Below are positions 9,318 to 54,520 of a DNA stretch of 64,000 bases, one piece after another. Source of the DNA: an uncultured Chitinophaga sp. (GTDB taxonomy: Bacteria > Bacteroidota > Bacteroidia > NS11-12g > UBA9320); assembly GCA_964617955.1 (NCBI GenBank), contig CAZTXB010000010.1, positions 1,771 to 65,770 on the forward strand, given 5' to 3'. A program made the position numbers and the translations under genes. Below the pieces are notes generated by a model, which ran no database searches, was not told where the DNA came from, and saw nothing but the letters and a program-made list of their open reading frames with translations. The first letter of the stretch is position 1. Each line of letters starts with the position of its first letter.

Positions 9318-9524
9318 ATGATTCATAAAATAGAAATTGACGATAGCACTGAAACGGGCAAATTGGTTTTGGAATTCCTGAATGGTATTGGAATGGGAAG
9401 CGGCAAACTAAATCCTGGTATCAGAAATTTTTTATTAAACAGCCTTAAAGAGTCAGAACAAGGAAACCTTAAAACGAGCAATGAAGTGTTTACAGAAATT
9501 AAGCAATGGCTTCATTCAAAATAA
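9318..9524 (+). CDS. Putative antitoxin of a type II TA pair (small upstream partner of the ParE/RelE-like toxin)
   Basis: 68-aa ORF overlapping the downstream toxin gene by 19 nt. This is the typical antitoxin-toxin operon layout. No recognisable enzymatic motifs. Confidence 0.45.
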   Translation: MIHKIEIDDSTETGKLVLEFLNGIGMGSGKLNPGIRNFLLNSLKESEQGNLKTSNEVFTEIKQWLHSK

Positions 9525-9814
9525 AATGGACTACCAGAGCCCAAATAAGTTTAAATTTAATTCTTGAGTTTTATATCGATCAAAATGGCAATGCAAATTA
9601 TAGCCTCGCTTTGCTCAAAGAAATAGAAAACGGAATAAACATTTTGATCGATTTTCCCTTAAGCGGCAAATCCATTGGTTTTTTTGATATCCGAGAACTT
9701 GTTTTTGAAAGGAATTCTGTTTTTTATCACGTTCTGGATAATGAGGTGCATATTCTTCTGATTTGGGATAATCGTCAAAATCCGGATAGCTTGATTAAGC
9801 TATTGGCCAACTAA
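9506..9814 (+). CDS. Type II toxin-antitoxin system RelE/ParE family toxin
   Basis: 102 aa. N-terminal FKIKWTTRAQISLNLILEFY and C-terminal HILLIWDNRQNP segments are characteristic of ParE/RelE-fold toxins. Size and the overlapping upstream partner are consistent. Confidence 0.7.
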   Translation: MASFKIKWTTRAQISLNLILEFYIDQNGNANYSLALLKEIENGINILIDFPLSGKSIGFFDIRELVFERNSVFYHVLDNEVHILLIWDNRQNPDSLIKLLAN

Positions 9815-13210: not shown

Positions 13211-14413
13211 TTATTCAATGCCCATTTTCTTTTTTAGCTCTTTAGAAATAGAGTCTTTATGAACCATTATGTCGGTAGTTTTATACCTTATATAAGCCTC
13301 TGAGGCAAATAAATAACCATCGCAATCGTTGCTTTTTGCTCCCCATGAGTTTTTTACCCTGTAGTAATTTTTGCCGTTCTGGTCAGTATAAATACCCACA
13401 ATATGCATTCCATGGTCATCGGTGGTTTGGTAATTATCAAACGCCAATTGCCGGCTTTGCTGGGTAATTACCCTCTCAAGACAAGGTGCATCGAAAGCCG
13501 TACCCGATTTATCAGCACCGGCATTGTTAAAATATTTACTGTCGCTGCCTTTCTTAATGATGGCCGTATCGTCCTCGGGCACTATAGCCAAACCATTTTT
13601 AAATGAAAAGCCTTTTTCAGAAACATCTGTAGCCCAGGCCACCGTGAAACCCTTTTTTAAAGAACTGTTTACAATGTCCATCATTTCATCCAATGGCACA
13701 TTATAAATCGATTGACTCGCCCAATTGTCCTCAACCTCCAACACAAATTTTTCATAAAACGGATGATGTGTAAAGGAGCCAAGGTATACATAATCTTCCA
13801 TTTTTAATCCCAGGGAAGTGGCGAATTCTTTGGGGGTATATTTTTTTCCCTGATAAGTAAAATTTTCAGGAACGGCGCCTAAGTAAGCATCAACCACAGA
13901 TGAAAAGGCTTTTTTCCAGCTGGGTGTGATGGTTTTTTGCGGATTCTCCGTCACTGTTTTTACCATGCCGGTGAGCATGGCCTCCAACTCACTGTGGTTG
14001 TGTTTTTCCGTGCCATAATTAAGTCCGGCATAAACCTCTTCGGGCATAATGCCATGTTTTTGAATAACATAGGGGATGTCATGAAAGGCTCCGCCCTGAC
14101 CAAAATTCGATTTTCCATGCATACGAACGTACTTTTCGGCCTTATCAATATAGGCATTTCTGACCACAAACATCTCACTGAGGTTGTGTTTGCCCTTGCC
14201 CATTCTTATGAGCTCTGATTCAAAGAATGAAAGCGCCGAAAAGCTCCAACAGGTGCCTGTGCTGCTCTGATCCTGAACAGGCGTAGCATCTAAATTTAAG
14301 ACTTTGGTAAACAGATATCCCCCTCCTTTTTTATTTCGAAGGGTATCCTGTGCTCTGATTTGAGAACATAAAGAGAAACAGATTAAGCCGGAGAGAACTA
14401 ATGATTTTCGCAT
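13211..14413 (-). CDS. Secreted papain-family (C1) cysteine peptidase, aminopeptidase C/bleomycin-hydrolase-like
   Basis: Catalytic Cys context QDQSSTGTCWSFSALSFFESE plus His/Asn-region motifs. Signal peptide MRKSLVLSGLICFSLCSQIRAQ; I placed the start at the internal Met (14413). The track start is 14434. Confidence 0.8.
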   Translation of the reverse strand: MRKSLVLSGLICFSLCSQIRAQDTLRNKKGGGYLFTKVLNLDATPVQDQSSTGTCWSFSALSFFESELIRMGKGKHNLSEMFVVRNAYIDKAEKYVRMHGKSNFGQGGAFHDIPYVIQKHGIMPEEVYAGLNYGTEKHNHSELEAMLTGMVKTVTENPQKTITPSWKKAFSSVVDAYLGAVPENFTYQGKKYTPKEFATSLGLKMEDYVYLGSFTHHPFYEKFVLEVEDNWASQSIYNVPLDEMMDIVNSSLKKGFTVAWATDVSEKGFSFKNGLAIVPEDDTAIIKKGSDSKYFNNAGADKSGTAFDAPCLERVITQQSRQLAFDNYQTTDDHGMHIVGIYTDQNGKNYYRVKNSWGAKSNDCDGYLFASEAYIRYKTTDIMVHKDSISKELKKKMGIE

Positions 14414-14536
14414 TTTTAAATTTTCGACAAACATAAAATAATTAGTTTTTCAAGAAAGAGAGTTTTAGACCAATAATGGATAGAAAAGGTTAAAGTGAAG
14501 CCATTGTTGTACCTTTGATTCTGAAATGGTCGAAGT

Positions 14537-15544: not shown

Positions 15545-16423
15545 TCAGCCGGTTTCCTGAATAAGAGAGATAAAATTTCCAATGAATTTACGCTCTCTTA
15601 AATTGTATTGATCCCCGTCGACCATTACATGTACCACTAAATTTTCGAGCGATATGGGACTGCCTTCCGGAATGTCGGCAATGTTTGAATGTCTGATTTT
15701 ATGCCCGTCGATAATAATGACGCAACCGCTGCCAATGGCTTCAAAATAATTTCCCTCTTTAATGATTAAGCCGGTATCCTCTCCTAAACCCAAACCAATA
15801 CACATGGGGTTGCAGCCTACTGCCTGGGCCAAACGGCCAAACCTACCCCTTTTTTCGAAATGGGAATCGATAATTACATTTTGAATAAAGGCCAAACCTG
15901 TTGTAATTTTTACTTCGCCTTTCAGGTGAGCCGTCGTACTGTTGCCTTGATATATCATGGTATTGCTCATTGCCATAGCTCCTGCACTTGTGCCGGCAAC
16001 TACAAACTCTTCGTGTTCGTAGCGCTCATGAATAATAGCCATCAATTCCGTTCCACCCAGCAAGGTGGTAAGTCGAAGCTGATTACCGCCAGAAAACATG
16101 ACCCCATCGCAGGCCCTAATCCGCTCCAAAAATTCAGGGGTATCGGCATCCTCTCTGCTTTTAATGTGAATAACGCCCACATTGTCGCAACCAATTTTTC
16201 CAAAAGCCTGTATATAATTGTCACCGACTTCTTCAGGAATAGAGGAGGCGGTAGTAATCACCTCGATATGAGAATGCGTGTCGCCAATTTCGCCAACAAT
16301 GCGTGTAAGAATACCCAACTCAAAAAAATTGGCGTTGTTTTTATGGATTAAATCAGGCAACTCTTCATTGCCTTTATCTTCCGCACCTCCAATTGAAATT
16401 AATTTTCCCTTCGGTATCATCAT
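15545..16423 (-). CDS. cphB: Cyanophycinase (peptidase S51)
   Basis: 292 aa. N-terminal KLISIGGAEDKG, Ser-nucleophile context VVAGTSAGAMAM and His/Glu region match CphB. It is arranged divergently from cphA. Confidence 0.85.
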   Translation of the reverse strand: MMIPKGKLISIGGAEDKGNEELPDLIHKNNANFFELGILTRIVGEIGDTHSHIEVITTASSIPEEVGDNYIQAFGKIGCDNVGVIHIKSREDADTPEFLERIRACDGVMFSGGNQLRLTTLLGGTELMAIIHERYEHEEFVVAGTSAGAMAMSNTMIYQGNSTTAHLKGEVKITTGLAFIQNVIIDSHFEKRGRFGRLAQAVGCNPMCIGLGLGEDTGLIIKEGNYFEAIGSGCVIIIDGHKIRHSNIADIPEGSPISLENLVVHVMVDGDQYNLRERKFIGNFISLIQETG

Positions 16424-16640
16424 TAAGTGGGTTCAAATATAAATATATTAATGTATTGTAAATTTTAAATTAGGTCAAGGTTATCATTCCAAATAAAGGG
16501 TTTGTATTTGCTATTCAAAGAGGAATGCGCCTATATGCGCTAAATAAAGCGAAAAGGTTTTTTTTTACCCCTGCCTCAGATTTCTCAAACATGTTAAATC
16601 TTAAAATTAAAAATATAACTTGCCCATCAGAAAAAACGGT

Positions 16641-19274
16641 ATGAAAATTATTGATATTAAAGTGATGAATGGTCCAAATTACTGGAATGTTTCAAGGCAT
16701 AAACTGATTGTGATGAGGTTGGACCTGGAAAATTTGGAAGAACGACCTACTAACAAAATAGAAGGATTTTCAGAACGCATCGAAAAAATGTTTCCGAGCA
16801 TGTATTCGCATCGCTGTTCGCCTGGAGTGCCAGGTGGTTTTTTTACCCGCGTAAAGGATGGCACCTGGATGGGTCACGTTATTGAGCACATTGCCCTTGA
16901 AATTCAAACCTTAGCCGGTATGGAATGTGGGTTTGGCCGAACCAGAGAAACTTCCACCAAAGGGGTTTACCATGTGGTGTTCAGTTATTACGAAAAAAAG
17001 GCAGGAATATTTGCTGCCAAAGCTTCGGTGGCCATTGCCGAGGCTTTAATATCAGGAGCTGATTACGACCTAGAGGCCGATATACAGGAGCTGCGCGAAA
17101 TACGCGAAAACGACCGATTGGGCCCGAGTACAGGGGCCATTGTAGACGAAGCGGTAAAGAGAAAAATACCCTTTATTCGATTGAATAACCGCTCCCTGGT
17201 TCAACTCGGTTATGGCGTTAATCAAAAAAGAATACAAGCCACCATTGCCAGCACCACAAGCAGCATTGCAGTTGAAATTGCATGCGACAAGGAAGACACC
17301 AAGAATTTATTAGAGAGTGCCGAAATCCCAGTACCAAGAGGTAAAATTTGTTATGATGTAGAGGATTTGCAGACGGCAGCCGAAAAATATGGCTACCCCT
17401 TGGTTACCAAGCCTGTGAATGGAAACCATGGCAAAGGAGCCACCACAAACCTCACCAATTGGGAAGATCTCCTCATAGGTTTTGAGGCGGCTCAAAAATA
17501 CGGAAGGGGAATTATCGTTGAAAGGTTCATAACCGGTTATGACCATCGCATCCTGGTAATCAATTATAAATTTATTTGTGCTGCCAAACGAACACCTGCA
17601 GCCGTAATTGGCGACGGAAAGCAAACCATTCAGCAGCTCATTGATGAGGTGAATTCCGATCCAAGACGAGGATACGGGCATGAAAAAGTATTGACAAGCA
17701 TCAAGGTAGATCATTTTACCCAAAACATTTTAACTGAAAAAAATCTAAGCCTCGAAAGTGTGTTGCCCAAAGGCGAAGAACTGTGGCTTAAACCAACGGC
17801 TAATTTAAGCACCGGCGGAACAGCAACTGACATCACGGATCATGTACATCCCAGCAACGTATTTATGTGCGAGCGCATAGCTCGAATTATAGGATTGGAT
17901 ATATGTGGCATTGATATCATGGCTCCTGACCTTAGCACCCCTCTTAGTGAAAACGGTGGGGCGGTGTTAGAAGTGAACGCCGCTCCGGGTTTCAGAATGC
18001 ATCTGGATCCAACCGATGGACTGGGTCGTAATGTGGCAGAACCGGTTATTGATATGTTGTATCCTCCGGGATCCACAGCCAGAATTCCTATTATCGCCGT
18101 TTCGGGTACCAATGGAAAAACTACGACTACAAGGCTGATGGCTCATATATGCAAGCAAATAGGATACAAGGTAGGCTTTACCACTACCGATGGGGTGTAT
18201 ATACAAAATGAATTGATGGTGAGAGGCGATTGCACGGGTCCGGTTTCAGCCGAGTTTGTGCTCAAGGACCCAACGGTAGATTTTGCGGTGTTGGAATGCG
18301 CCAGAGGAGGAATACTCCGGGCCGGACTTGGTTTCCACAATTGCGATATGGCGATTGTGACCAATATTGCTGCCGACCACCTGGGACTTCAAGGCATTGA
18401 CACCCTTGATCAATTGGCCAGGGTAAAGTCGGTGGTGCCCAGAACAGTTTTACCCGAGGGTTATGCCATATTAAATGCTGACGACGATTTGGTTTATGCC
18501 ATGCGAAAGGATGTGGAATGCAAAATTGCCCTCTTTAGTATGGATGAACATAACCCTAGAGTCCTTGAACATTGTAAGGAAGGCGGTTTAGCTGCAGTTT
18601 ATGAGAACGGTTTTGTAACCATTATCAAAGGCGACTGGAAAATCAGGGTTGAAAAGGTGACCAATATTCCCCTTACATTCGGCGGTAAAGCTGAATTTAA
18701 TATTGCCAATACCCTTCCGGTGGTGATGGCTTCCTATCTAAGAAACTTTAAACTGGAAGACATCCGCCTGGCTTTACAAACTTTTATTCCATCGCCGGCC
18801 CAAACTCCAGGAAGAATGAATATGTTCCATTTCAACAATTTTACAGTAATGGTTGATTATGCCCACAATACAGCCGGTCTTACCGCCCTTGGAAAATTTT
18901 TGAGCAAAATTGAGAGTCCGAGAAAGATTGGGGTGATTGCAGGGGTTGGCGACAGAAGAGACGAGGACACCATTTCACTTGGGGTTGAAGCCGCTCATTT
19001 ATTTGATGAGATTGTGATACGGCAGGATAAAAATTTACGGGGCAAAAGCGGGCAGGAAATCATCGACTTAATTACCAAAGGCATTCATTCGGTCGACCCG
19101 GATAAAATAGTGAAGGCCATACCCATTGAAAAAGAGGCCATTGATTATGTTATTGGCAGTGCCTCTAAAGATTGCTTTATTACCATTTGCAGCGATGTGG
19201 TTCCGCTGGCCCTGGATATGATTATAAGTTTAAAGGAAGCAGAAGATACTTTGGCGGTAAGGAAAGGGTATTGA
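16641..19274 (+). CDS. cphA: Cyanophycin synthetase
   Basis: The N-terminal MKIIDIKVMNGPNYWN is a CphA hallmark. Central ATP-grasp domain and C-terminal Mur-ligase domain with P-loop VSGTNGKTTTT. I took the ATG at 16641 as the start; the track lists an upstream TTG at 16620. Confidence 0.9.
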   Translation: MKIIDIKVMNGPNYWNVSRHKLIVMRLDLENLEERPTNKIEGFSERIEKMFPSMYSHRCSPGVPGGFFTRVKDGTWMGHVIEHIALEIQTLAGMECGFGRTRETSTKGVYHVVFSYYEKKAGIFAAKASVAIAEALISGADYDLEADIQELREIRENDRLGPSTGAIVDEAVKRKIPFIRLNNRSLVQLGYGVNQKRIQATIASTTSSIAVEIACDKEDTKNLLESAEIPVPRGKICYDVEDLQTAAEKYGYPLVTKPVNGNHGKGATTNLTNWEDLLIGFEAAQKYGRGIIVERFITGYDHRILVINYKFICAAKRTPAAVIGDGKQTIQQLIDEVNSDPRRGYGHEKVLTSIKVDHFTQNILTEKNLSLESVLPKGEELWLKPTANLSTGGTATDITDHVHPSNVFMCERIARIIGLDICGIDIMAPDLSTPLSENGGAVLEVNAAPGFRMHLDPTDGLGRNVAEPVIDMLYPPGSTARIPIIAVSGTNGKTTTTRLMAHICKQIGYKVGFTTTDGVYIQNELMVRGDCTGPVSAEFVLKDPTVDFAVLECARGGILRAGLGFHNCDMAIVTNIAADHLGLQGIDTLDQLARVKSVVPRTVLPEGYAILNADDDLVYAMRKDVECKIALFSMDEHNPRVLEHCKEGGLAAVYENGFVTIIKGDWKIRVEKVTNIPLTFGGKAEFNIANTLPVVMASYLRNFKLEDIRLALQTFIPSPAQTPGRMNMFHFNNFTVMVDYAHNTAGLTALGKFLSKIESPRKIGVIAGVGDRRDEDTISLGVEAAHLFDEIVIRQDKNLRGKSGQEIIDLITKGIHSVDPDKIVKAIPIEKEAIDYVIGSASKDCFITICSDVVPLALDMIISLKEAEDTLAVRKGY

Positions 19275-19381: not shown

Positions 19382-19612
19382 ATGACAAAGCGAACCATAA
19401 TTGAAAAAACCGTAAAAATCATCCATCAACTGCCTAAAGAGAAAGCGGAAGAGATTTTCGATTTTGCTGACTTTCTTATTAAACGACATGAAGAGAAAGG
19501 TTTAATTAAAGACATTCAAAATGTTTTGGAGGAGAGTGAATCATTTGAGTTCTTAAATTATGAAGAAGACCTTTATTCTGTGAATGACCTAAAGGAAAAG
19601 TACAATGAATAA
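19382..19612 (+). CDS. Putative antitoxin (DUF2281-like) of a MazEF-type type II TA pair
   Basis: 76-aa acidic small protein overlapping the downstream MazF/PemK-like gene by 8 nt. Confidence 0.5.
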   Translation: MTKRTIIEKTVKIIHQLPKEKAEEIFDFADFLIKRHEEKGLIKDIQNVLEESESFEFLNYEEDLYSVNDLKEKYNE

Positions 19613-19925
19613 AGGGGATATCGTGCTGGTGACATTCCCGTTTACCAATCTCAGTGGTAGTAAACTTCGCCCGGCTGTGATACTTTTTCAAACAACACTT
19701 GATTTCACAGCTTGTTTTATTACAACACGAATGGAATGGAAAGAACCAACTGATGTTTTGCTTATTCCAAGTCAAACAAATGGACTAAGAAAAGAGTCCC
19801 TTATACGCAGCAGTAAAATAGCTACCCTCGAAAGACAATTAGCAAAAGGCCTGTTAGGCAAACTCAATGAAAATGAGATTAAGGATTTGGACGATAAACT
19901 CAAAACGCTCTTTCAATTGACATGA
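19605..19925 (+). CDS. Type II toxin-antitoxin system PemK/MazF family toxin (mRNA interferase)
   Basis: 106 aa. The N-terminal GDIVLVTFPFTNLSGSKLRPAVIL motif is the canonical MazF/PemK beta-barrel start. Confidence 0.75.
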   Translation: MNKGDIVLVTFPFTNLSGSKLRPAVILFQTTLDFTACFITTRMEWKEPTDVLLIPSQTNGLRKESLIRSSKIATLERQLAKGLLGKLNENEIKDLDDKLKTLFQLT

Positions 19926-19966: not shown

Positions 19967-20653
19967 TTAAAAAAAATACTCCACCACATACATGGCCAAA
20001 AGCACGGTGATGGGTATCAAAAAATTATCCATTCCCTTTCTTCCGTAAAGTTCTGTCAGAGAGGCAGCTGTGGCTATGAAAGCTGAGACCCTGGTCACAT
20101 CTTTCATGGCAAAAACATGGGAGGTAAGCAAAATAAAGCAGGATAAGAGGAAGGTCCCAATCCAAAAGGCCAGGGTTCCTCCCACTGATTTGTTTAATTT
20201 CTCGAATTTATGGATGGGGTACCATTGCCCAATGAGAGTGGCTAAAGGATCGCATAAGGTCATGGCTAAAATGGGTAAATAAAAGTAAGCGTAAGAGTGT
20301 GTTACATTGTCCTGGCGGCTGCCTGAATAAAACCAGGCCAGGTATACTAAATAAACTACCATAGGGTAAACAATGCTGCCATAAGTTTTTCGCTTTACGG
20401 CATTAATACTTTTCAAAAAACCATATTGAATACTTAGTACCAGAACCAGCTGATATAAGGCGCAGCTCAACAAAACCCACCAGGGGTTTTTAAAAAAAAC
20501 CGGGAAGCAAAGGCTTAATAAACCAGCCCCAATATGGACTACTTTACGGGTAATTTCAACATGTACTTTTTTATAATGATAAAGCCATCCCGAAAATCCG
20601 AATAAGATAATTCCCAGCATCGATAACCATAAAAAATGGATTGCGTCTGACAT
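19967..20653 (-). CDS. Hypothetical polytopic inner-membrane protein (about 7 TM)
   Basis: 228 aa, almost entirely hydrophobic helices, with a conserved-looking RKVVHIGAG loop. I could not place it in a family with confidence. Confidence 0.5.
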   Translation of the reverse strand: MSDAIHFLWLSMLGIILFGFSGWLYHYKKVHVEITRKVVHIGAGLLSLCFPVFFKNPWWVLLSCALYQLVLVLSIQYGFLKSINAVKRKTYGSIVYPMVVYLVYLAWFYSGSRQDNVTHSYAYFYLPILAMTLCDPLATLIGQWYPIHKFEKLNKSVGGTLAFWIGTFLLSCFILLTSHVFAMKDVTRVSAFIATAASLTELYGRKGMDNFLIPITVLLAMYVVEYFF

Positions 20654-20793: not shown

Positions 20794-21105
20794 TTAATAT
20801 CTTGAGAATTTGGGCTTTTTATCTTTAAATTCGATACGAATATTTCCCCATTTCGTGCCGGGAAATTCAATTTTCGAAATTCTGTCGAAAGCCATGTCGT
20901 GAAGACTTTCATTTTTAATATAAACGATGTAATATTCTTTCACTTCGAACAGTTCAATTCTGCTGTAGGTGGTTTGGTCAATTTCGAAAATTTTACCCTT
21001 GCCCAAAGCCTCCAGATCTGACTTTTGGTAAAGATCAGGCCAGGAGGTTTGTGTTTGGGCAGAGAGAAAAGCTGCGGCGACGAATATGATTAATAAAGTG
21101 CGCAT
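20794..21105 (-). CDS. Hypothetical small secreted protein
   Basis: 103 aa, signal peptide MRTLLIIFVAAAFLSAQTQ. Lies directly downstream of the CsgG-like outer-membrane protein gene on the same strand. Confidence 0.45.
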   Translation of the reverse strand: MRTLLIIFVAAAFLSAQTQTSWPDLYQKSDLEALGKGKIFEIDQTTYSRIELFEVKEYYIVYIKNESLHDMAFDRISKIEFPGTKWGNIRIEFKDKKPKFSRY

Positions 21106-21128
21106 TTTTCTATTTATTAAAGATTCAG

Positions 21129-22277
21129 TTAAAGACTTTTTGGCTTTTTGTATATGTTGAAACCGAACGAAAATCCGGTAACCCAGCCTTCTTTTTTTGG
21201 CAGAACATATACGTTCACAGGGATATTGAGATAGCCTGATTTAAAAGTGCGTCCTACACCGATAAACAGACTGGTAGAAAGGGTTGCAAAACCCCTATTG
21301 TCCAGGCGGTTTTGAATTTCGTATGGATTTTTTTCGGTCTTTGTCCAGTCTTCCTCCAAATGCCAGGCGTTCACTCCTTCTCCCAGTACATTGTCAGTAT
21401 CGAAAAAACCATCCGCCTTTCTTACGATTCTAAAACTGGGGCCGAAGGCAAATTCCCAACCGGCTTTCCCCATCCTAAACCCATTCAAAAAAGTTGCAGA
21501 GGGTATAAACTTACCGGACTCAAGTCCACCTATCATCGGAAAAAACTCAACCAGAGCTTGAAAATCTCCTGCACTGATGTATTGCTTCTCAAACTGCCAG
21601 CCAATTTGAAAATTGGTAGGGTACATATTAAAGCCACCTTCGCGGGTTGGAGCCTGCAGAACTTTGGCGGCATCGCCAAAGGCCATGGAGGCACCCATTC
21701 GGGGGCCACTGAGTTTCATTTGGGTTTGCGGACTGGCAATAGGTGCCTCATAGTTTACCAAAAGATTTACAATGTTTTGGTCGGGGGTAATGCCCACCAA
21801 TTTTTGCACCGAAATAGCAATCATACGTTGGAGTTCAGGCTGCAAATTCTGGTATTCGGTGGCATTCTGACTTTCAACGGTCTCCGATACGATGTCCAAA
21901 ACTTTGAGTGAAATCACAATTTTTTCTCCAAAGCGCTCTACGCTGCCTGTGATTACCTTGTCTACCCCAAGTGCTTTTCCCGCATTGAGAACACAAGATT
22001 TTCCAAAACATCCCTCCAATTGAATTTCATTTTTCTTTACCAACTCGGCCACATCGTACTTGTCCATCAAAACAAATTTGTTGGTTTTGTCTAACTCCAA
22101 ACCTACCATGTAGGCCACTGCCTTACTGTCATTGATAATCCCTTTGCTGTCAATACCTAAAACGGCCGCCAGGGGTTTGTCTTTGCTTTGTGCTTCTGAA
22201 ATCTTATGACCGAAAAGCAATAACGAACATAAAGCGATCTTAATAAATAAATTTTGAGTTTTCATTTTCTGTATCAA
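21129..22277 (-). CDS. Hypothetical secreted/outer-membrane protein with a CsgG-like N-terminal domain and a C-terminal beta-barrel-like region
   Basis: Signal peptide. N-terminal PLAAVLGIDSKGI..AVAYMVGLELDKTNKFVLMDKYDV..GKALGVDKVITGSV..VISLKVLDIVSETV resembles the CsgG/TolB-N-like fold. The C-terminal 230 aa are rich in alternating aromatic/Gly beta-strands ending ...GFSFGFNIYKKPKSL. Confidence 0.5.
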   Translation of the reverse strand: MIQKMKTQNLFIKIALCSLLLFGHKISEAQSKDKPLAAVLGIDSKGIINDSKAVAYMVGLELDKTNKFVLMDKYDVAELVKKNEIQLEGCFGKSCVLNAGKALGVDKVITGSVERFGEKIVISLKVLDIVSETVESQNATEYQNLQPELQRMIAISVQKLVGITPDQNIVNLLVNYEAPIASPQTQMKLSGPRMGASMAFGDAAKVLQAPTREGGFNMYPTNFQIGWQFEKQYISAGDFQALVEFFPMIGGLESGKFIPSATFLNGFRMGKAGWEFAFGPSFRIVRKADGFFDTDNVLGEGVNAWHLEEDWTKTEKNPYEIQNRLDNRGFATLSTSLFIGVGRTFKSGYLNIPVNVYVLPKKEGWVTGFSFGFNIYKKPKSL

Positions 22278-35786: not shown

Positions 35787-37082
35787 TCAATCTTCAGAGA
35801 AGTACTTCTTTCTGAACTTAATATTCAATTGTTTTTGGTGGTTGTCCAAATCCACAGGCCGGCCATCGATCCAGGCATGTGTTACCACTGAGGTTTTCAT
35901 GTCTAACACATTGCCCTCGCTCAAAAAGAGGGTGGCACTTTTTCCTGGTTCCAGGGTACCATAATCTTTGGCTATTCCCAATATTTCGGCTGTATTTTTG
36001 GTGATTGCCATTAAAGCTTGTTCGTCGGTGAGCCCATATGCCACTGCGCTTCCGGCTTGAAAGGGAAGGTTTCGTTGCTGCCAGGCACCTACATCGGCAA
36101 TACAATAAAGTACACCCGAATCCTGCAATAATTTCGGTAGTTTATAGGGCAAATCTATATCATCCTCAGGCATGGATGGCAAATTATGGGTGCGTAAAAG
36201 TATTACAGGAACCTTGTTTAGTTTGAGGTAGGCGCTGATTAAAAAACTTTCATTCGCGCCCACTATGGTTGGAGTTATTCCATATTTTTTAAAAAATTCA
36301 ATGGCACTCATCATTTCTTTGGCGCCATCGGCATGCACAAAAATTTTGGTGGCACCTGTAAATACTTTTTTAAAGGCTTCCAATTTCAGATTGAGTACCT
36401 CAGGTTGCGTTTCAGAATAGGATTTGGCTTTTGAAAAAATTTCTTCTAATGCGAAAAGCTCCTTGTCCACCTGCAATTTTTCTATCTCGCCGGGCTCGGC
36501 CCACCAACCTCTTTGTACCGACATCCTGGGCCAGTTAACGTGCAGGGCATCATCCATTTTAATTGCGGCATCTTCCCAATTCCAGGCATCGAGTTGTACA
36601 ATGCCTGAGGTCCCGGAAATAAGTCCCCCTTGTGGGGTGACTTGAGTGAGTAAAATGCCATTACTTCTCACCGTTGGAATCACTTTTGAGTCGGTATTGT
36701 AAGCGATGAGGCTTCTTACATTGGCGTTGTTGGTCCCTACCTCGTTAAAGTCTCTTGTTGATCGCACAGCGTCAATTTCATTCAATCCCGTGGTAGAATT
36801 CGGAGCGATGAGTCCCGGATACAAATGTTTGCCTTTAGCCTCTACAATGGTGTAGCCTTTAAAGTCGTTGAGTATAAGCAGCGAATCGGCCGAAACTATC
36901 CGACCATTTACAATCGCCAGACTTGCATCATTAACCACCTTGCCGTTTCCAATGTGTAAAGTCGCACCCATAATCAAAACCGGTTTGGCTCCTAATTTTC
37001 CGGGCGAAGGGACCTGCGCCCTCCCGTGAAAAATAGTAGCGGATATTACAATTAGCAATAGGTACCTCATCCTGTTCATCAT
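35787..37082 (-). CDS. Secreted amidohydrolase-superfamily protein (metal-dependent hydrolase)
   Basis: Signal peptide MMNRMRYLLLIVISATIFHGRAQ. Amidohydrolase motifs (NGRIVSADS N-terminal beta-sandwich, HAD..., HAWIDG). The start ATG at 37082 overlaps the upstream gene's TGA (ATGATG context). The track start is 37106. Confidence 0.8.
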   Translation of the reverse strand: MMNRMRYLLLIVISATIFHGRAQVPSPGKLGAKPVLIMGATLHIGNGKVVNDASLAIVNGRIVSADSLLILNDFKGYTIVEAKGKHLYPGLIAPNSTTGLNEIDAVRSTRDFNEVGTNNANVRSLIAYNTDSKVIPTVRSNGILLTQVTPQGGLISGTSGIVQLDAWNWEDAAIKMDDALHVNWPRMSVQRGWWAEPGEIEKLQVDKELFALEEIFSKAKSYSETQPEVLNLKLEAFKKVFTGATKIFVHADGAKEMMSAIEFFKKYGITPTIVGANESFLISAYLKLNKVPVILLRTHNLPSMPEDDIDLPYKLPKLLQDSGVLYCIADVGAWQQRNLPFQAGSAVAYGLTDEQALMAITKNTAEILGIAKDYGTLEPGKSATLFLSEGNVLDMKTSVVTHAWIDGRPVDLDNHQKQLNIKFRKKYFSED

Positions 37083-40033
37083 TCTATGTTTTCTTCTTCC
37101 TCGCAATGGTATATTTCCTCTTCAGTTTTAACTGCTTTTCGGGTCGAATGCCCCTCTTTTTTGGCCTTGACCATGGCGTCGATAAGCCTTTTGCGTTCGG
37201 AGGCAACGAATTTTCTTTTTTCCAAATCTAAGGTTCGGTCAAAATAAATTTGTCCGTCGATTATGGTCGTCACAGGTTTTGAAAAGTTGCTTAAGGGATT
37301 TCCATCCCACAACACCAAATCGGCATCCTTTCCAATTTCAATGCTACCCACCCGTTTCTCGATGTGAAGCATTTTAGCCGGGTTAATGGTCACCATGTTT
37401 AACGCCTCAACTTCCGAAACCCCGCTGTATTTAATGGTTTTAGCTGCTTCCTGTGTCAATCTCCGGCCCATCTCAGCGTCGTCGCTGTTGATGCCCGTGA
37501 TAACACCCACTTCATTTAAAATACCCGCGTTGTGGGGTATGGCGTCGATAACCTCATACTTATAGGCCCACCAATCGGCAAAGGTGCTGGCCGCCACGCC
37601 ATGCTTCTTCATCTTATCGGCCACTTTGTACCCCTCAAGTATATGGGTGAAGGTGTTTACTCTAAACCCAAAACTATCGGCAACATGCATGAGCATATTT
37701 ATTTCCGACTGTACATAGCTGTGACAGGTGATAAATCTTTTTCCGTTCAAAATTTCCAACAGGGCTTCCAACTCCAAATCGGTGCGGAATACACCGGTCT
37801 TTTTAGCCTGAGCATAAGCCATTGCTCTGGTGAAGCCATCATTAAATACCTGCTCTACGCCCATTCGGGTCTGTGGGTATCGGCTGGTTTGTCTGTCGCC
37901 CCAATTGCTTTGCTTAACATTTTCGCCAAGGGCAAATTTTATAAAGCGGTGATCGGTAGGGAATTTTAATTGCTCCGGACCTTCACCATATTTTAATTTA
38001 ATCAGCGCCGTTTGGCCTCCAATGGCATTGGCCGAACCGTGCAGAAGGTGGGAAGTGGTTACTCCTCCCGACAATTGTCGGTATATGTTCACGTCTTTGG
38101 CATTGATGACGTCTTCAATGCGCACTTCACTGGTAATAGACTGAGTGCCTTCGTTGACCCCTTTGGAGATCGCGATATGGCTGTGTTCGTCAATAATTCC
38201 CGGTGTAAGGTGCTTGCCCATCCCGTTGATTTCCACAGCATCAAAAGGTCTGTAATGCAGATCGGTGCTTATCGAAAGAATTTTACCATCTTTTACCAAT
38301 ACATTGGCAATTTTCGGTTGCGCTTTGTCGGCGCAGGTCCATACCGTGCAGTTGGTTATATAATACGCAGCTGCCTTTGGCGTATCATATTTCCATGGCC
38401 ATTTAAACATCGGTACCTTTAATTCGGGCTTCGCCTTAACCGAATCTTTACTTGCTTCTAATTCTCCTAAAAATTTGGATAAAATTTTAATGGCTTTGCC
38501 TGTGGAGTCCTGGTAGTTGATAAGCAAATCGCGCCCAACTTTATACGCCGTTCCAATGACAGGCCGCTCGTTTCTTTGATAAAAATGAAAGGACAAGAGT
38601 CCGTTTTTGACCATGATTTTGATTTCTGCAGCCGACTTTGATTTCATAACGGCTTTCTGATTCCAGGGTTTACCGCTGATGATGTATTGCAGAGTGCTGT
38701 CGCCAAATTTAACCGAATACTTTCCTCTGAAGTCCTCAGTGTTTCGGTCCACCAGAGGATAGGCCTGACCCAAAACCCAGTTCTCAACTATGGCTGAGCC
38801 CTGTTTAAAAATATTGCCATCGCAAACTAAAAAGTTAGCAAATTTCCCCTGTTCAAGCGTTCCACAGCGGCTCTCCACACCCAAATATTTTGAAGGAATG
38901 GCGGTGAGGGCTTTCAAGGCATATTCTTCAGGCAATCCGTTTTCAATGGCCCTTCGCAAATTGGGAAGGAAATTCTCCTTCTTTTTCATTCCGGCACTGG
39001 TCAGAGCAAAGTCGATACCTTGCGAATAAAGAACGTAGGGGTTAAAAGGGGCATTTTCCCAATGCTGAAGTTCGGTGAGGTTTATTAACCGTGCGTCGAG
39101 TGGATCTTCCACATCAAAAGCCTCAGGAAAATCGATGGGGATGATGAGAGGGGCCTTGGTTTCCCTCACTTCCTTGATAAATTGATACTCGTCGCCCTTT
39201 GATTTTATGATATACTGAATCCCAAATTCATCCCCTAGCTTATCGGCCCGCAAAATTTCCTGGGCATCGCCCACTTCAAAAAAATGAGAGAGATTTGAAT
39301 TCTTGTTATAGAGTTGCAGCGACCGGTTCACCTCCTCCTGTTTTGCGCCTTTATACCATTTGGCGTCATAATAAAATTGTCTCAGCAAAGCGATGCTTCC
39401 CATTAAACTCGAGGGGTAATCCTGAGTGGAATTGCCCTTGTTGAAAGAGAAAAATTGTCCTGCCTCCGACTCTATGATTTGCCGGGTTTCAGGTTTTTCG
39501 CCCAGGTGGGTTACCAATCCAAGGCCTCTTGCAATGCCATTTTGCGAATGCGAAGCTACCACACCGAAGCCCAAATCGCGGTAGGTTTTTGCTTCTTCTT
39601 TTTGAATCGAAAATACAGCCGAGGCTTCCATTTCAGGATGAATGGCTTCATTCCAATACCAGGGTCCATGCTTAGAACTCAAAAATTGTGGTCCGGGTTT
39701 ATCGGCCTTTTGGCCTGCTTTTTCGATTCCGTATTCAGTCCAGGGGTCGATGAAAGAAGGGTAAATCCAATAGCCTTTGAGATCGACGATTCTGGAGCCG
39801 GCCGGAATTTTTATATCCTTGCCTATGGCTTGAATCAGGCCTTTTGAAACAATCAAAACTCCGTTTTCAATTTTAGTTTGGGCATCCTTAATCAGGGTGG
39901 CGTTGATAAAGGCATACACTTCATTGTAGGTGTCGTCAACCCCATTAATGGGGACTCCATTCTGAGCTTTGACTTTAGGCAGGCTAAAAATCAAACAAAC
40001 CGAAAGGCAAATGATGGCACTTATCCTGGGCAT
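37079..40033 (-). CDS. Secreted large amidohydrolase-superfamily protein with two amidohydrolase-like modules
   Basis: 984 aa, signal peptide. Two separate metal-ligand regions (e.g. GIIDEHSHIA, and a second HSYVQ...H). A commonly conserved gene pair with the downstream 430-aa amidohydrolase in Bacteroidota. Confidence 0.8.
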   Translation of the reverse strand: MPRISAIICLSVCLIFSLPKVKAQNGVPINGVDDTYNEVYAFINATLIKDAQTKIENGVLIVSKGLIQAIGKDIKIPAGSRIVDLKGYWIYPSFIDPWTEYGIEKAGQKADKPGPQFLSSKHGPWYWNEAIHPEMEASAVFSIQKEEAKTYRDLGFGVVASHSQNGIARGLGLVTHLGEKPETRQIIESEAGQFFSFNKGNSTQDYPSSLMGSIALLRQFYYDAKWYKGAKQEEVNRSLQLYNKNSNLSHFFEVGDAQEILRADKLGDEFGIQYIIKSKGDEYQFIKEVRETKAPLIIPIDFPEAFDVEDPLDARLINLTELQHWENAPFNPYVLYSQGIDFALTSAGMKKKENFLPNLRRAIENGLPEEYALKALTAIPSKYLGVESRCGTLEQGKFANFLVCDGNIFKQGSAIVENWVLGQAYPLVDRNTEDFRGKYSVKFGDSTLQYIISGKPWNQKAVMKSKSAAEIKIMVKNGLLSFHFYQRNERPVIGTAYKVGRDLLINYQDSTGKAIKILSKFLGELEASKDSVKAKPELKVPMFKWPWKYDTPKAAAYYITNCTVWTCADKAQPKIANVLVKDGKILSISTDLHYRPFDAVEINGMGKHLTPGIIDEHSHIAISKGVNEGTQSITSEVRIEDVINAKDVNIYRQLSGGVTTSHLLHGSANAIGGQTALIKLKYGEGPEQLKFPTDHRFIKFALGENVKQSNWGDRQTSRYPQTRMGVEQVFNDGFTRAMAYAQAKKTGVFRTDLELEALLEILNGKRFITCHSYVQSEINMLMHVADSFGFRVNTFTHILEGYKVADKMKKHGVAASTFADWWAYKYEVIDAIPHNAGILNEVGVITGINSDDAEMGRRLTQEAAKTIKYSGVSEVEALNMVTINPAKMLHIEKRVGSIEIGKDADLVLWDGNPLSNFSKPVTTIIDGQIYFDRTLDLEKRKFVASERKRLIDAMVKAKKEGHSTRKAVKTEEEIYHCEEEENIE

Positions 40034-40087: not shown

Positions 40088-41545
40088 TTAATTGCTTTTT
40101 TTACTAAAATCAATGCCTTGTAATTTAAGGATGGACGTGACTTTGATGGCATAGTAGGCCAGGAAAATAAAGCAAGCCACCCCAACGAGGTAACTCCAGC
40201 TTATACCCAAAAGCCAGTCGGCCGAAAGGTATCCTTGCAGCAGACTGATAAAGCCGCCGCCCATAATCATCATAATTAAAAAACTCGAGCCCTGGTTGGT
40301 GTGCTTGCCAAGACCGGCAATAGCCAAAGTAAAAATACAGGGCCAAAGGGTGCTGCAAAAAAGTCCAACACTCACAAAGGCGTAAACACTTACCATTCCC
40401 GACGACAACATGCCAACGAAGAGGGCAAGAATGCCCATAATGGAAAAAATCAGCAATTGCAGAGCGGGATTGCCTTTGCTCGCTATGTCAGCCCCTATGA
40501 GGGTAAGGATTACAAATGCATAAACATAAAATATCGATAAGTCGAGTTCGGGATTGGCGAGGTGGTTTGCAAATAGAAAAACCCCAAAAGCCACATAGGG
40601 CATCAAAAAATTGAGAAGGGATTTAAGTCCCCCTTTAATGTTAAAAGCCCCAACAGAGGAAGTCCAGCGGCCAATCATCAAACTTGCCCAAAACAATGAA
40701 ATATAGGGTGCCGCTTTATCGGTTTCAATGTTGGCCTTTTGGCGCATCAGTTCGGCCAAATTGCCGGCAGTAGATACCTCTACTCCCACATACACAAAGA
40801 TGGCTATCATGCCCAAAACCAATTGAGGATAACTCAGGGCACTTTTTCTATGCAGACTTTCAGTGGCCTCCTCTGCATCTGATTTTGCCTGAGGTGCCTC
40901 CTCAATTTTATCGGGAATGCGCGAAAAAAGAAAGATAAGGGCAAAAACAAAGAAGGCTGCGCCCAAAATTAAATAAGGTGTTTTGATGTTGTCGATGCTG
41001 GCGAGAGAGGTACTTCCGGGTTTTACAGAGCCAAAAATGGCAAAGCTCACCAAGAGAGGACCAATGGTGGTTCCCACGTTATTTACCCCTCCTGCCAAAC
41101 TCAGGCGCTGCGAACCCTTAGTGGGGTCGCCCATGACAATGGTTAAGGGGTTGGCGGCAGTTTGTTGCAGCGAAAATCCCAGGCCAACAATGAACAATCC
41201 GGTAATCATAATAGGGAATGAAGCCGATTCAGCCGCCGGGTAAAACAAGAGAGTGCCTAGGGCCGAAATCATCAATCCGAGGGCAATCCCTTTTTTATAT
41301 CCCACCTTGTTGAGAATATCTCCGCCGGTGGCCCTAGAGATGGCGTAGTAAATAACGGAGCCTACTGTATATGCCACATAAAAAGCAAAGGAAATCATTT
41401 GCGATTGCCATTGGGCCAGATTCAGTTTTTCCTTAAAAACCGGAATTAAAATGTCGTTGCTGGCGGCTACAAATCCCCAGAAAAAGAAGACCGAGATGAT
41501 GGTGAGCAGCGCAGTGGTATTGCCTTTGGCTGTGGACGTGTTCAT
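40088..41545 (-). CDS. Sugar MFS transporter (FucP/GluP glucose-galactose-fucose:H+ symporter family)
   Basis: The N-terminal LLTIISVFFFWGFVAASNDILIPVFKEKL is typical of the FucP/GluP subfamily; 12 TM. I placed the start at the internal ATG (41545, MNTSTAKG); the track start is 41623. Confidence 0.8.
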   Translation of the reverse strand: MNTSTAKGNTTALLTIISVFFFWGFVAASNDILIPVFKEKLNLAQWQSQMISFAFYVAYTVGSVIYYAISRATGGDILNKVGYKKGIALGLMISALGTLLFYPAAESASFPIMITGLFIVGLGFSLQQTAANPLTIVMGDPTKGSQRLSLAGGVNNVGTTIGPLLVSFAIFGSVKPGSTSLASIDNIKTPYLILGAAFFVFALIFLFSRIPDKIEEAPQAKSDAEEATESLHRKSALSYPQLVLGMIAIFVYVGVEVSTAGNLAELMRQKANIETDKAAPYISLFWASLMIGRWTSSVGAFNIKGGLKSLLNFLMPYVAFGVFLFANHLANPELDLSIFYVYAFVILTLIGADIASKGNPALQLLIFSIMGILALFVGMLSSGMVSVYAFVSVGLFCSTLWPCIFTLAIAGLGKHTNQGSSFLIMMIMGGGFISLLQGYLSADWLLGISWSYLVGVACFIFLAYYAIKVTSILKLQGIDFSKKSN

Positions 41546-41723
41546 GGTGTGTTCCCTTTTTGAGGGCTGACAAAGATATTTAAATAGCTGAAATCTTAAG
41601 AAGGGATTTTTTTGCCAACACATTAAAACATGTAAAACTAAAGAAAATGCTGTTCATTTTATTTTCTAGTCTTAGTTCTTTACCCCCATCCCCATTTTTT
41701 TTTCCCTTATTTTTTTTGATTCT

Positions 41724-42932
41724 TTGCAAATGGCTTCCCATAAATCCCTGTCTTCAAAAATCGCCTTCTTTGCTTTACCCCTGTTGGTGTTTTTGATGGT
41801 ACTTGCCATTACCCGATTTATCGCGCATCAAGGCAATTGTCACGAATGGGGCGAGCTGTGTTGGTCAAGACAAGATTCTGGTCTTTACATTCAGATAGCC
41901 GGCATCGGGCATACTTTATTTCATTGCGGACCGGAATTCGGGTATCCCGAAAATTCGGAGGTATGGTGCGGCAATGCCGGTTGGGCGCCGTTTTATCCCA
42001 TGCTCATGTTCATGTTGAGCAAAGCCTGTGGATTGGATTTACCCAATGCGGGCATCGTGCTTTCGTTGTGCTTCATGATTGGGTTTTTGTATATAGCCGC
42101 TCTGTTCATAGAGGTTAAATCCTTTGCCCTTTCCAATTGGCTAACCCTCTTAATTTGTGCCATATGTCCGGGAGGTATTTATTACTTTGCCATTTTTCCC
42201 ATGTCGCTTATGATTTTTCTTCTGGCCATGGTATTTTATGGCCTCAAGTCCAACCGCTTTATTTTGACGACCATCGGGTCCTTTCTCTTACCCCTCACTT
42301 ATAGCTCGGCTATTGTTATATTGTTTGCCTTTGGCCTTTACCTCGCCTTGTTATGGTTTAAAAGTGCCCCCTTTGCGTCTCTGAATGTTAAGGAATTGGT
42401 GCAAAACAGTTTCAACATGCTGCGGGAACACATCATTTTTAAAACCTTACTGCTCAGGGTATTGCTTCCCGGGATTTTGGGACTGCTTGGTCTTTATATT
42501 TACGATTATTGGGCCACAGGTCACTGGAACGCCATGTTTTTGATTCAGAAAAAATATGGACATGGACTTTACAGCCCTTTCAAACACCTGAAAGGCCATT
42601 GGCATACCTTTCAAAACCTCCTTTATACCAAAGAAGCCTGGGTTAGCTTTCACAATGTGTTTTTCTTTTTTGCCTTACCGTTCTTGTGCCTGCTCATTTA
42701 CAGAACCAAGGCAGCCCTTAGCGCGCTGGTAATTGTGTTTAGTCTGTGCATCTGGTACTTCCCCTTTAGCATAGGCATGCATGTGTCGCTTTACCGAGGC
42801 ATAGGTCTCCTTGCGCCGGCTCTGATTTTTCTGCATCCCGTAAGCCACCTTAAAAAAATAATCCTAGCCCTGGTATTTGGGGTTTTTTACTATTTCATGG
42901 GGGTGCTTTTCATTTACGATATCCTGAAATAA
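41724..42932 (+). CDS. Hypothetical polytopic membrane protein (possibly GT-C-like/DUF2029-like)
   Basis: 402 aa with about 10 hydrophobic helices. No soluble-domain motifs recognised. Confidence 0.5.
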   Translation: MQMASHKSLSSKIAFFALPLLVFLMVLAITRFIAHQGNCHEWGELCWSRQDSGLYIQIAGIGHTLFHCGPEFGYPENSEVWCGNAGWAPFYPMLMFMLSKACGLDLPNAGIVLSLCFMIGFLYIAALFIEVKSFALSNWLTLLICAICPGGIYYFAIFPMSLMIFLLAMVFYGLKSNRFILTTIGSFLLPLTYSSAIVILFAFGLYLALLWFKSAPFASLNVKELVQNSFNMLREHIIFKTLLLRVLLPGILGLLGLYIYDYWATGHWNAMFLIQKKYGHGLYSPFKHLKGHWHTFQNLLYTKEAWVSFHNVFFFFALPFLCLLIYRTKAALSALVIVFSLCIWYFPFSIGMHVSLYRGIGLLAPALIFLHPVSHLKKIILALVFGVFYYFMGVLFIYDILK

Positions 42933-54400: not shown

Positions 54401-54520
54401 TACCTGTTTCTCAAATTGCCCCTTGTTTTCTACAAACTGTAAATCATCCTCCGTTTGGGCCATGCACAGCATGGGGCTGATGAAAAAAATGAAAACACAA
54501 TATTTGAAAAAATTCCTCAA
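51488..54520 (-). CDS. Large secreted protein with an N-terminal SBBP/beta-propeller region, PKD-like domains and a T9SS type B (gliding-motility-associated) C-terminal sorting domain
   Basis: 1010 aa, signal peptide. N-terminal FVENKGQF...VFL.K motif, repeated YATYFGG/ATYVGG beta-propeller repeats, WDFGDG PKD motifs. The C-terminus ...PNVFTPDGDGINDCF...YNRWGQKMFE...GTVTLIRK matches the type B CTD. Confidence 0.85.
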   Translation of the reverse strand: MRNFFKYCVFIFFISPMLCMAQTEDDLQFVENKGQFEKQVLYRVQVNCGYVFLEKNAITFKLFKESEYQASHQHLHKENLPTNPVVHGHSFRYVFLNGEANPAVIGVKPFFQKHNYFLGNDRSKWASNVNLFSEVVYENIYPGIKLRVFSKFGQIKYEWLVSPGANPDLIRIKLQGLDSIEVKNNSLLLKTAIGIVSDQNLLVWQNSNDRKELHPKGISCVYRLDGNIISYQFHNGYNPEYELVIDPILVFSTYSGSRGDNFGFTATYDSRGNLYAGGATDNSQGEYPVSTGAFQINWAGGLGRDPVNLPSDITISKYDSSGKNLIYATYVGGADDDYPHSMVVNRDSELVVFGTSYSKNFPVTPNAFDTTHNSYSSSDTLTDIVVFKLSKWGDQLLASTFFGGSSHDGLTDKDLKYNYADDFRGEVLTDKGDNIYVVSTTNSKDIPLKNAFQSTLGGTADGLCLKFSKNLDQLLWATYFGGNASDGIYSLEFDKDENIFVAGGTQSDNLPTHTSAINKNRNGGTDGFMASFDQQTFALTRATYYGTSTYDQIYFLEIDKLGNVYGTGQTTGEIVASNGAYSNKAKTGQFIFIADNSLSQVKRQTVFGARPHVPELSPSAFLVDSCGNIYLSGWGSNLGRPGTTNGLPITSNALQASTDGNDFYLAVFSKNLYGLLYATYYGGNQSEDHVDGGTSRFDKRGIIYQSVCSSCPNTPGNTLNDFPTSSNAAFPKNVSWRCSNAAFKIDFQINHLVEARFIPDAVACGPTDVQFTNLSQGKINSYWDFGDGNSSIEKHPKHSFPKVGQYKISLISTDSSTCNVSDSSSGIVNVLQRSEADFEMVKEECSNAVSFKNKSGHFETVLWNFGDSTFTESIDPDPHEFTKAGIYYVRLITDRLKQCPDTVIYPIEIKGIPVDQLVPSNVFTPDGDGINDCFQFDGGLNECSKIKISIYNRWGQKMFETRDMSECWNGKVNNGVKECPEGTYFYIAEYKGLSKKIKPLFSGTVTLIRK

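Follow-up and report, generated by a model that had tools for sequence, protein, structure and literature searches.

A predicted cyanophycin synthesis and breakdown locus, cphB–cphA, in an uncultured Bacteroidota bacterium

As far as is known, cyanobacteria carry cphB and cphA, the genes for cyanophycinase and cyanophycin synthetase, in operons in which both genes are read in the same direction. Here we describe a locus in which the two genes are instead divergent, found in a 64-kb stretch of DNA (contig CAZTXB010000010.1; the whole stretch is hereafter called the window) from an uncultured Bacteroidota bacterium. The active sites of cyanophycin synthetase 1 (CphA1) from Synechocystis sp. UTEX2470 (SuCphA1; structures 7lg5, 7txu, and 7txv) have been set by mutagenesis at H267 in the G domain, D585 and H586 in the M domain, and a Cx19HxxEH motif in the N domain (PMC9262961). 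The last of these is a zinc endopeptidase site (C59, H79, E82, and H83, aided by H57, F67, R70, and E87) that cuts the polymer to primers and thereby makes SuCphA1 primer-independent, and W672 is required for the tetramer (PMC9262961). The motif is present in 83% of nr70 CphA1 sequences and marks a primer-independent subclass rather than the whole family (PMC9262961). The cphA-cphB-cphZ cluster of Acinetobacter baylyi likewise joins a non-cyanobacterial synthetase (CphA1, 7lgm) to an intracellular cyanophycinase, and it carries a dedicated dipeptidase, CphZ, of the mainly proteobacterial M14/AstE family (PMC9974463). Cyanophycinase releases β-Asp-Arg dipeptides only, and a separate isoaspartyl dipeptidase is required to obtain Asp and Arg (PMC10206079). 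Of 1,614 complete genomes that carry cphA1, 86 are from Bacteroidota, as compared with 79 from cyanobacteria (PMC10206079, Table 2). All 86 of these Bacteroidota genomes have a cyanophycinase, and cphA1 and the cyanophycinase gene are clustered in 81% of the genomes having both (PMC10206079).

The window contains an intact cphB and an intact cphA, read away from each other across 217 bp (Table 1). They are real genes rather than chance open reading frames (ORFs), with E values against curated models of 0 for CphA and 1.8e-69 for CphB. We put at roughly 90% the probability that the two form a functional cyanophycin locus that belongs to a Bacteroidota bacterium and has been passed down within the phylum. 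A first-pass annotation, made by reading the letters and the ORF translations, had assigned the pair these coordinates and strands with a 217-bp gap, and the ORF list and the sequence bear this out. The short strings it quoted are also present, MKIIDIKVMNGPNYWN as residues 1–16 of CphA, the P-loop GTNGKTT as residues 489–495 of CphA, and GTSAGA in CphB (Table 1).

CphA matches the equivalog model TIGR02068 at 1249.9 bits (cut-off 850) over profile positions 1–859 of 862, and NF010623 at 1154.4 bits (cut-off 877) over its full length. Its residues 1–861 align with residues 1–866 of SuCphA1 (7lg5, E = 9.5e-295), at about 51% identity (50.6% by blastp). The gammaproteobacterial CphA structures are more distant, the A. 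baylyi enzyme (7lgm) scoring 623 bits and 7lgn 600 bits, as against 983 bits for the Synechocystis enzyme. Pfam matches describe a three-domain architecture, with PF18921 at residues 25–137, ATP-grasp/RimK at 215–318, Mur_ligase_M at 487–695, and Mur_ligase_C at 724–849. The earlier identification of the protein as a cyanophycin synthetase, and not a ligase of the MurE/FolC type, is upheld by these full-length matches above the cut-offs.

Relatives were collected in a scan of one genome per species. At least 595 stretches encode them, and the best 80 (L001–L080) were studied in detail, with up to 8 kb fetched on each side of cphA. In an alignment of the window CphA, SuCphA1, and the 80 Bacteroidota homologues, all 15 of the CphA1 residues checked are kept in the window protein. 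The N-domain set (H57, C59, F67, R70, H79, E82, H83, and E87) is complete in the window and in 79 of the 80 homologues. H263, the equivalent of SuCphA1 H267, and D579 and H580, the equivalents of D585 and H586, are invariant in all 80 relatives, and W666 corresponds to the tetramer-interface residue W672; each of the residues named here is shared by 79–80 of the 80 relatives. The window protein and SuCphA1 share the three domains, the N-domain site, the G-domain histidine, the M-domain Asp-His pair, and the interface tryptophan, but about half of their residues differ, and E90 of the SuCphA1 polymer-binding surface is a threonine in the window according to the alignment. Given the intact Cx19HxxEH site, primer independence is predicted for the window CphA1, and the enzyme is predicted to be a tetramer.

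CphB matches the equivalog model TIGR02069 at 234 bits (cut-off 126.6) over profile positions 1–250 of 250, and PF03575 at 70.8 bits. Its nearest solved relatives are cyanophycinases, namely 7uqv (E = 7e-54) and the Synechocystis sp. PCC 6803 enzyme (3en0). It aligns with the solved structures over residues 5–281 of 292, with ~32% identity to 3en0, and has in common with them the S51 fold, the Ser-His-Glu triad, and most of the substrate pocket. For the Synechocystis enzyme, we use the triad numbering and the six pocket positions attributed to Law and colleagues (2009). Ser146, His188, and Glu215 of the window protein align with the triad Ser132, His174, and Glu201, and all 44 Bacteroidota homologues have the same three residues. 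The pocket is also retained at five of its six positions, with Q115, D186, R192, R194, and R197 equivalent to Q101, D172, R178, R180, and R183. The sixth, Gln173 in Synechocystis, is Ser187 in the window (codon 15863–15865) and serine in all 44 Bacteroidota homologues; the change might go along with a product or hand-over that differs slightly. The full-length match above the cut-off and the arginine-rich pocket confirm the first-pass identification of CphB as a cyanophycinase and set it apart from a generic PepE.

An insertion of ~15 residues relative to 7uqv occurs near the CphB N-terminus (residues ~18–42) and, judging from sequence, is apparently common to a Bacteroidota relative (L034). 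By inspection, no hydrophobic signal-peptide stretch was seen in the N-terminus, MMIPKGKLISIGGAEDKG. Because the N-terminus has no such signal peptide, CphB is assigned to the intracellular type and not to the secreted CphE.

The intergenic region is one of 38 divergent regions, which span 77–411 bp. The −7 consensus of Bacteroidota promoters, attributed to Bayley and colleagues (in 2000) and to later work on Flavobacterium, is reportedly TAnnTTTG. This motif is found on the cphB strand in 32 of the 38 regions, with its usual start 24–44 nt from the start codon, and in full on the cphA strand in 1 of the 38. On the cphA side, 27 of 75 non-redundant loci have a relaxed form (TAnnTTG) that ends 10–50 nt before the cphA ATG, as compared with 6.2 ± 2.4 in shuffled sequences (maximum 13), and the distribution of this form peaks at 20–29 nt on the sense strand only. 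The window has a candidate of each kind (Table 1), and we infer from the motifs that both would act as promoters. The inequality of the two boxes, canonical for cphB and relaxed for cphA, suggests that synthesis and breakdown are under separate control. Scans of the 217-bp region for σ70-type promoters and intrinsic terminators gave results at chance level. No Rfam family was found in this region at E≤1, and none at the gathering threshold in the whole window.

The relaxed box also bears on the start codon of cphA. The TTG within it is the codon used by ORF callers and by the public gene call to start an 884-aa protein (16620–19274), and the first ATG follows at 16641. The ATG is likely to be the start of cphA, rather than TTG 16620, because the candidate −7 box overlaps that TTG and because Met1 of the shorter protein aligns with Met1 of SuCphA1 and with position 1 of both hidden Markov models. 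The first-pass annotation had spoken of an 884-aa protein starting at 16641; the length is correct for the ORF counted from the TTG, but the start it gave yields 877 aa.

Table 1. Positions in the window of the cyanophycin genes, their sequence features, and the adjoining genes
Feature	Position	Strand	Basis or remark
moaA	14537–15535	plus	TIGR02666, 337.9 bits (cut-off 284); adjoins the cphB side of the pair
cphB, intracellular cyanophycinase, peptidase family S51, 292 aa, ATG start	15545–16423	minus	ORF list and TIGR02069
GTSAGA codons, CphB residues 144–149, putative nucleophile Ser146	15977–15994	minus	Aligns with Ser132 of Synechocystis CphB
Divergent intergenic region, 217 bp	16424–16640		Sequence read
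Candidate −7 box of cphB, TATATTTG	16434–16441	minus	Motif match to TAnnTTTG, 10 nt before the cphB ATG
Candidate relaxed −7 box of cphA, TAACTTG	16616–16622	plus	Motif match to TAnnTTG, 18 nt before ATG 16641; shares bases with TTG 16620
cphA, cyanophycin synthetase 1 (CphA1), 877 aa from ATG	16641–19274	plus	TIGR02068 and NF010623
N domain, PF18921 Cyanophycin_syn, residues 25–137	16713–17051	plus	151.6 bits
Cx19HxxEH motif (C59...H79-x-x-E82-H83), predicted cryptic zinc endopeptidase site for primers	16815–16889	plus	Alignment
G domain (ATP-grasp; predicted to add Asp to the backbone), residues ~158–475	17112–18065	plus	RimK/CPSase/ATP-grasp Pfam matches at 215–318; GshAB ATP-grasp model at 158–475
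M domain (Mur-ligase-like; predicted to add Arg to the Asp side chain), residues 487–849	18099–19187	plus	PF08245, 74.1 bits; PF02875, 49.1 bits
Small antitoxin of the PemK/MazF pair	19382–19612	plus	Weak VapB-like match
PemK/MazF toxin	19605–19925	plus	Beyond cphA; small antitoxin upstream

In the mechanism we propose, CphA1 would use ATP to build multi-L-arginyl-poly-L-aspartate, with the ATP-grasp G domain lengthening the Asp backbone and the Mur-ligase-like M domain adding Arg to each Asp side chain. The zinc site of the N domain would cut the polymer to supply primers. CphB would serve as a cytoplasmic Ser-His-Glu exopeptidase that frees β-Asp-Arg dipeptides when the reserve is mobilized. 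With the two genes read in opposite directions from the 217-bp region, synthesis and breakdown could be controlled separately. As no gene for the final step occurs in the pair or in the 64-kb window, an unlinked enzyme would have to split β-Asp-Arg into Asp and Arg. The bacterium probably has the capacity to lay down nitrogen and carbon in cyanophycin by means of a primer-independent type of synthetase, and this aids the reading of metabolism from its metagenome-assembled genome (MAG); beyond correct annotation, the significance of the locus is small. The analysis establishes the protein families, their domains, the conserved residues, and the recurrence of the layout, and from these the enzyme activities, primer independence, promoter positions, and physiological role are inferred. 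The points worth recording are the clade-wide change of Gln173 to serine, the asymmetry of the promoter motifs, the correction of the cphA start, and the absence of a linked dipeptidase.

Several points weigh against the view that this is a functional cyanophycin locus inherited within the phylum. We found no biochemically characterized CphA1 or CphB from Bacteroidota in the literature, and both the activity and the polymer composition (Arg as opposed to Lys) are extrapolated from enzymes 51% (CphA) and ~32% (CphB) identical to those of the window. The promoter elements are motif matches only. Gln173, which is serine throughout this clade, is said, following Law and colleagues (2009), to be functionally critical in Synechocystis CphB. 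Finally, none of the other neighbors of the pair in the window is conserved in the 80 related loci, and the pair may have been relocated in the past. Such variable surroundings are compatible with an old relocation but no proof of it.

The first-pass annotation had described the pair as a complete synthesis and degradation module. This goes too far, in that no IaaA, IadA, or CphZ is recognizable in the pair or in the 64-kb window, which encodes the first two steps of cyanophycin metabolism only, as is typical of Bacteroidota. The neighbors of the pair are moaA, a C1-family peptidase gene, and a toxin–antitoxin (TA) pair, and no isoaspartyl dipeptidase gene lies within 5 kb. Searched by tblastn with an IaaA-type representative, the window gave nothing over its whole length (best E = 0.49), and Pfam scans of 47 window ORFs revealed no Asparaginase_2 domain and no M14/AstE domain of the kind found in CphZ of A. 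baylyi.

When the neighboring ORFs of the 80 loci were clustered de novo, a single additional family recurred, that of a 312-aa Asparaginase_2 protein. This protein matches PF01112 at 379.7 bits and the β-aspartyl-peptidase model NF007589 at 381 bits, below the cut-off of 567. Of the 44 loci having cphB, 19 have this IaaA-type gene as the next gene past cphB, a place occupied in the window by moaA. In the remaining 25 loci, which lack the IaaA-type gene, no other gene recurs in more than four, and in ~6 of the 25 the contig ends <450 bp from cphB, too near to it for a verdict.

An ordinary IaaA or IadA gene outside the window may carry out the third step, which would make the organism fully conventional; we give this somewhat less than an even chance. 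It accords with the 19 related loci that have such a gene beside cphB, and with the occurrence of isoaspartyl dipeptidases in 43% of all bacterial genomes, mostly unclustered with cphA1 (PMC10206079). On the other hand, no IaaA or IadA is recognizable within the window, and one or the other is recognizable in just 22% of the complete Bacteroidota genomes that encode CphA1 (PMC10206079). According to the authors of that survey, the dipeptidase of Bacteroidota “remains undiscovered”, and that of Firmicutes is likewise missing (PMC10206079). We tentatively consider, also at odds short of even, that the organism belongs to the majority of Bacteroidota that have CphA1 and CphB and no IaaA, IadA, or CphZ anywhere in the genome, and that it uses a still-undiscovered β-Asp-Arg dipeptidase. 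Genomes such as this one are well suited to a search for the missing enzyme by phylogenetic profiling. The window itself offers no linked candidate, as its C1 peptidase and its amidohydrolase pair are either not conserved beside the cph genes or distant from them.

The C1-family peptidase (13211–14434), which is two genes from cphB, was rejected as the dipeptidase; its N-terminus resembles a signal peptide, and none of the 80 neighborhoods contains it. Two overlapping minus-strand ORFs of the amidohydrolase superfamily (35787–37106 and 37079–40033), located 16–20 kb from the pair, were rejected as IadA, with scores of at most 40.9 bits against the TIGR01975 cut-off of 331. These ORFs reach no equivalog, and their best partial matches are to the Caulobacter-type Xaa-Pro dipeptidase for the smaller ORF and to NagA/HutI for the larger, a 984-aa protein. 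The latter has two apparent halves, with N-terminal-type matches at residues 48–107 and 556–626. The amidohydrolase pair adjoins a gene for a GluP/NagP-like sugar transporter of the major facilitator superfamily (40088–41623, minus strand).

A 609-aa AsnB-like gene product is encoded <3 kb from the pair in four of the related loci (L040, 2151–3983; L041, 3287–5116; L042, 5028–6854; and L069, 3636–5468). Judged by its MCGI... N-terminus, it resembles a glutamine-hydrolyzing asparagine synthetase. Its gene adjoins cphB in L069 and L042, and apparent glycosyltransferase genes are close by. It was rejected as the dipeptidase, not being a hydrolase candidate.

The pair and its back-to-back layout are common in Bacteroidota and have already been catalogued there, and are in this sense already known. 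A cphB gene lies inside the fetched stretch in 44 of the 80 loci, and in 43 of the 80 it is divergent from and upstream of cphA, as in the window. With at least 595 relatives, these 43 loci of the same layout, and the 86 Bacteroidota genomes of the published survey (PMC10206079), the trait cannot be called sporadic outside cyanobacteria, as the first-pass annotation had done. Bacteroidota labels are attached to nearly all of the best 80 relatives (Chitinophagaceae, Taibaiella, Flavipsychrobacter, Flavobacteriales, and Bacteroidia MAGs). The window CphA is 65.6–76.7% identical to all 80 of them and 50.9% identical to the Synechocystis enzyme, to which the 80 show 49–54% identity. The closest CphA among the matches listed, which are species representatives, is 77% identical. 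Bacteroidota loci such as L003 and L006 (labelled Flavipsychrobacter/Bacteroidetes MAGs), L016, and L020 share with the window the divergent layout, the −7 motifs, and the serine at the Gln173 position, with CphA 66–77% and CphB ~56–69% identical to the window proteins. The pairwise identities of CphA and CphB co-vary over 45 loci (Mantel r 0.86, a value reached in 0 of 999 permutations). Together with the pattern of CphA identities, this co-variation indicates a coherent, deep Bacteroidota lineage in which the pair has been inherited as a unit. Further genes of the window are consistent with the phylum, among them one whose product has a CHU_C type IX secretion domain (51488–54520) and one for a fused CcoN-CcoO oxidase (58811–60934).

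Three of the relatives carry labels from elsewhere. The MAG contigs L012, L028, and L066 are labelled Comamonadaceae, Vulcanococcus limneticus (a cyanobacterium), and Bifidobacterium, respectively, and they carry a Bacteroidota-type cphA with 70–74% identity. L012 is nearly identical upstream of cphA to the Flavobacteriales contig L013. These labels are probably binning or labelling errors.

There is no sign of recent transfer of the pair. Its GC content is 0.41–0.43, within the 0.37–0.45 found over the window; no tRNA gene was found anywhere in the 64-kb window, and no integrase, transposase, or recombinase domain was found among the window ORFs scanned. These observations agree with the first-pass statement that the locus has no obvious island context. 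Its remark that the trait is often horizontally acquired is unsupported for this case, in view of the Bacteroidota-wide relatives and the co-varying CphA and CphB distances. It is accordingly unlikely that the pair is a recently acquired island, even though its flanking genes are conserved in 0 of the 80 related loci, two TA pairs occur nearby (MazF/PemK at 19382–19925 and ParE-like at ~9318–9814), and the closest listed CphA from a species representative is only 77% identical. Besides the flat GC content and the missing mobility genes, the nearly exclusive Bacteroidota origin of the best 80 relatives (66–77% identical, compared with about 51% for Synechocystis) and the Bacteroidota type of the promoter motifs argue for inheritance within the phylum.

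It is very improbable that the locus scavenges environmental cyanophycin instead of serving internal storage. Cyanophycin-utilization loci do occur in some Bacteroidota and other bacteria, but in these cphA1 is lacking and a cyanophycinase occurs together with a dipeptidase and a transporter (PMC10206079), whereas the window has a full CphA1, a CphB without a signal peptide, and no adjacent dipeptidase or amino-acid transporter. Hardly conceivable is a pairing of a generic MurE/FolC-type ligase with a PepE-type S51 dipeptidase: the CphA M domain does match MurE, MurF, and FolC models and CphB weakly matches PepE, but all of these matches are partial, with scores far below the cut-offs (133 bits against 373 for MurE NF001126, 117.9 against 257.3 for TIGR01085, 51.6 against 162.65 for FolC, and 21.9 against 156 for PepE NF003642), the ligase matches are confined to the C-terminal half of CphA, the cyanophycin models are matched in full length and above cut-off, the PF18921 N domain and the ATP-grasp domain are absent from MurE and FolC, and CphB has the arginine-rich pocket typical of cyanophycinases. 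The profile scores thus show neither the MurE/FolC affinity nor the generic dipeptidase E that the first-pass annotation had named as grounds for refuting its reading, and the alignments with solved structures and the residue conservation likewise refute these identities.

The genes flanking the pair were earlier described as housekeeping, with moaA and a TA module given as instances. Both are present (Table 1), but a TA module is not housekeeping. The window has a second TA pair, a ParE-family toxin with a small antitoxin (9318–9814, plus strand), mapped from the annotation of a matching metagenome contig (L081) that has the same gene order, in addition to that at 19382–19925 (plus strand). 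Several sizeable ORFs have no Pfam match (19967–20653 and 20794–22277 on the minus strand, and 41724–42932 on the plus strand). They encode a 228-aa multi-pass membrane protein directly past the TA pair, a 382-aa protein whose N-terminus resembles a signal peptide, and a 402-aa protein; the three that were also scanned against NCBIfam gave zero matches. The gene for the 382-aa protein adjoins that of a 103-aa partner. The moaA gene requires the TTG start at 14537, which gives 332 aa, to retain the radical-SAM cluster motif CNLRCTYC (residues 34–41), and from this start the protein aligns at position 1 of TIGR02666. The public moaA call on L081 (10889–11722) is 277 aa long, begins at Met56, and would miss the iron–sulfur motif.

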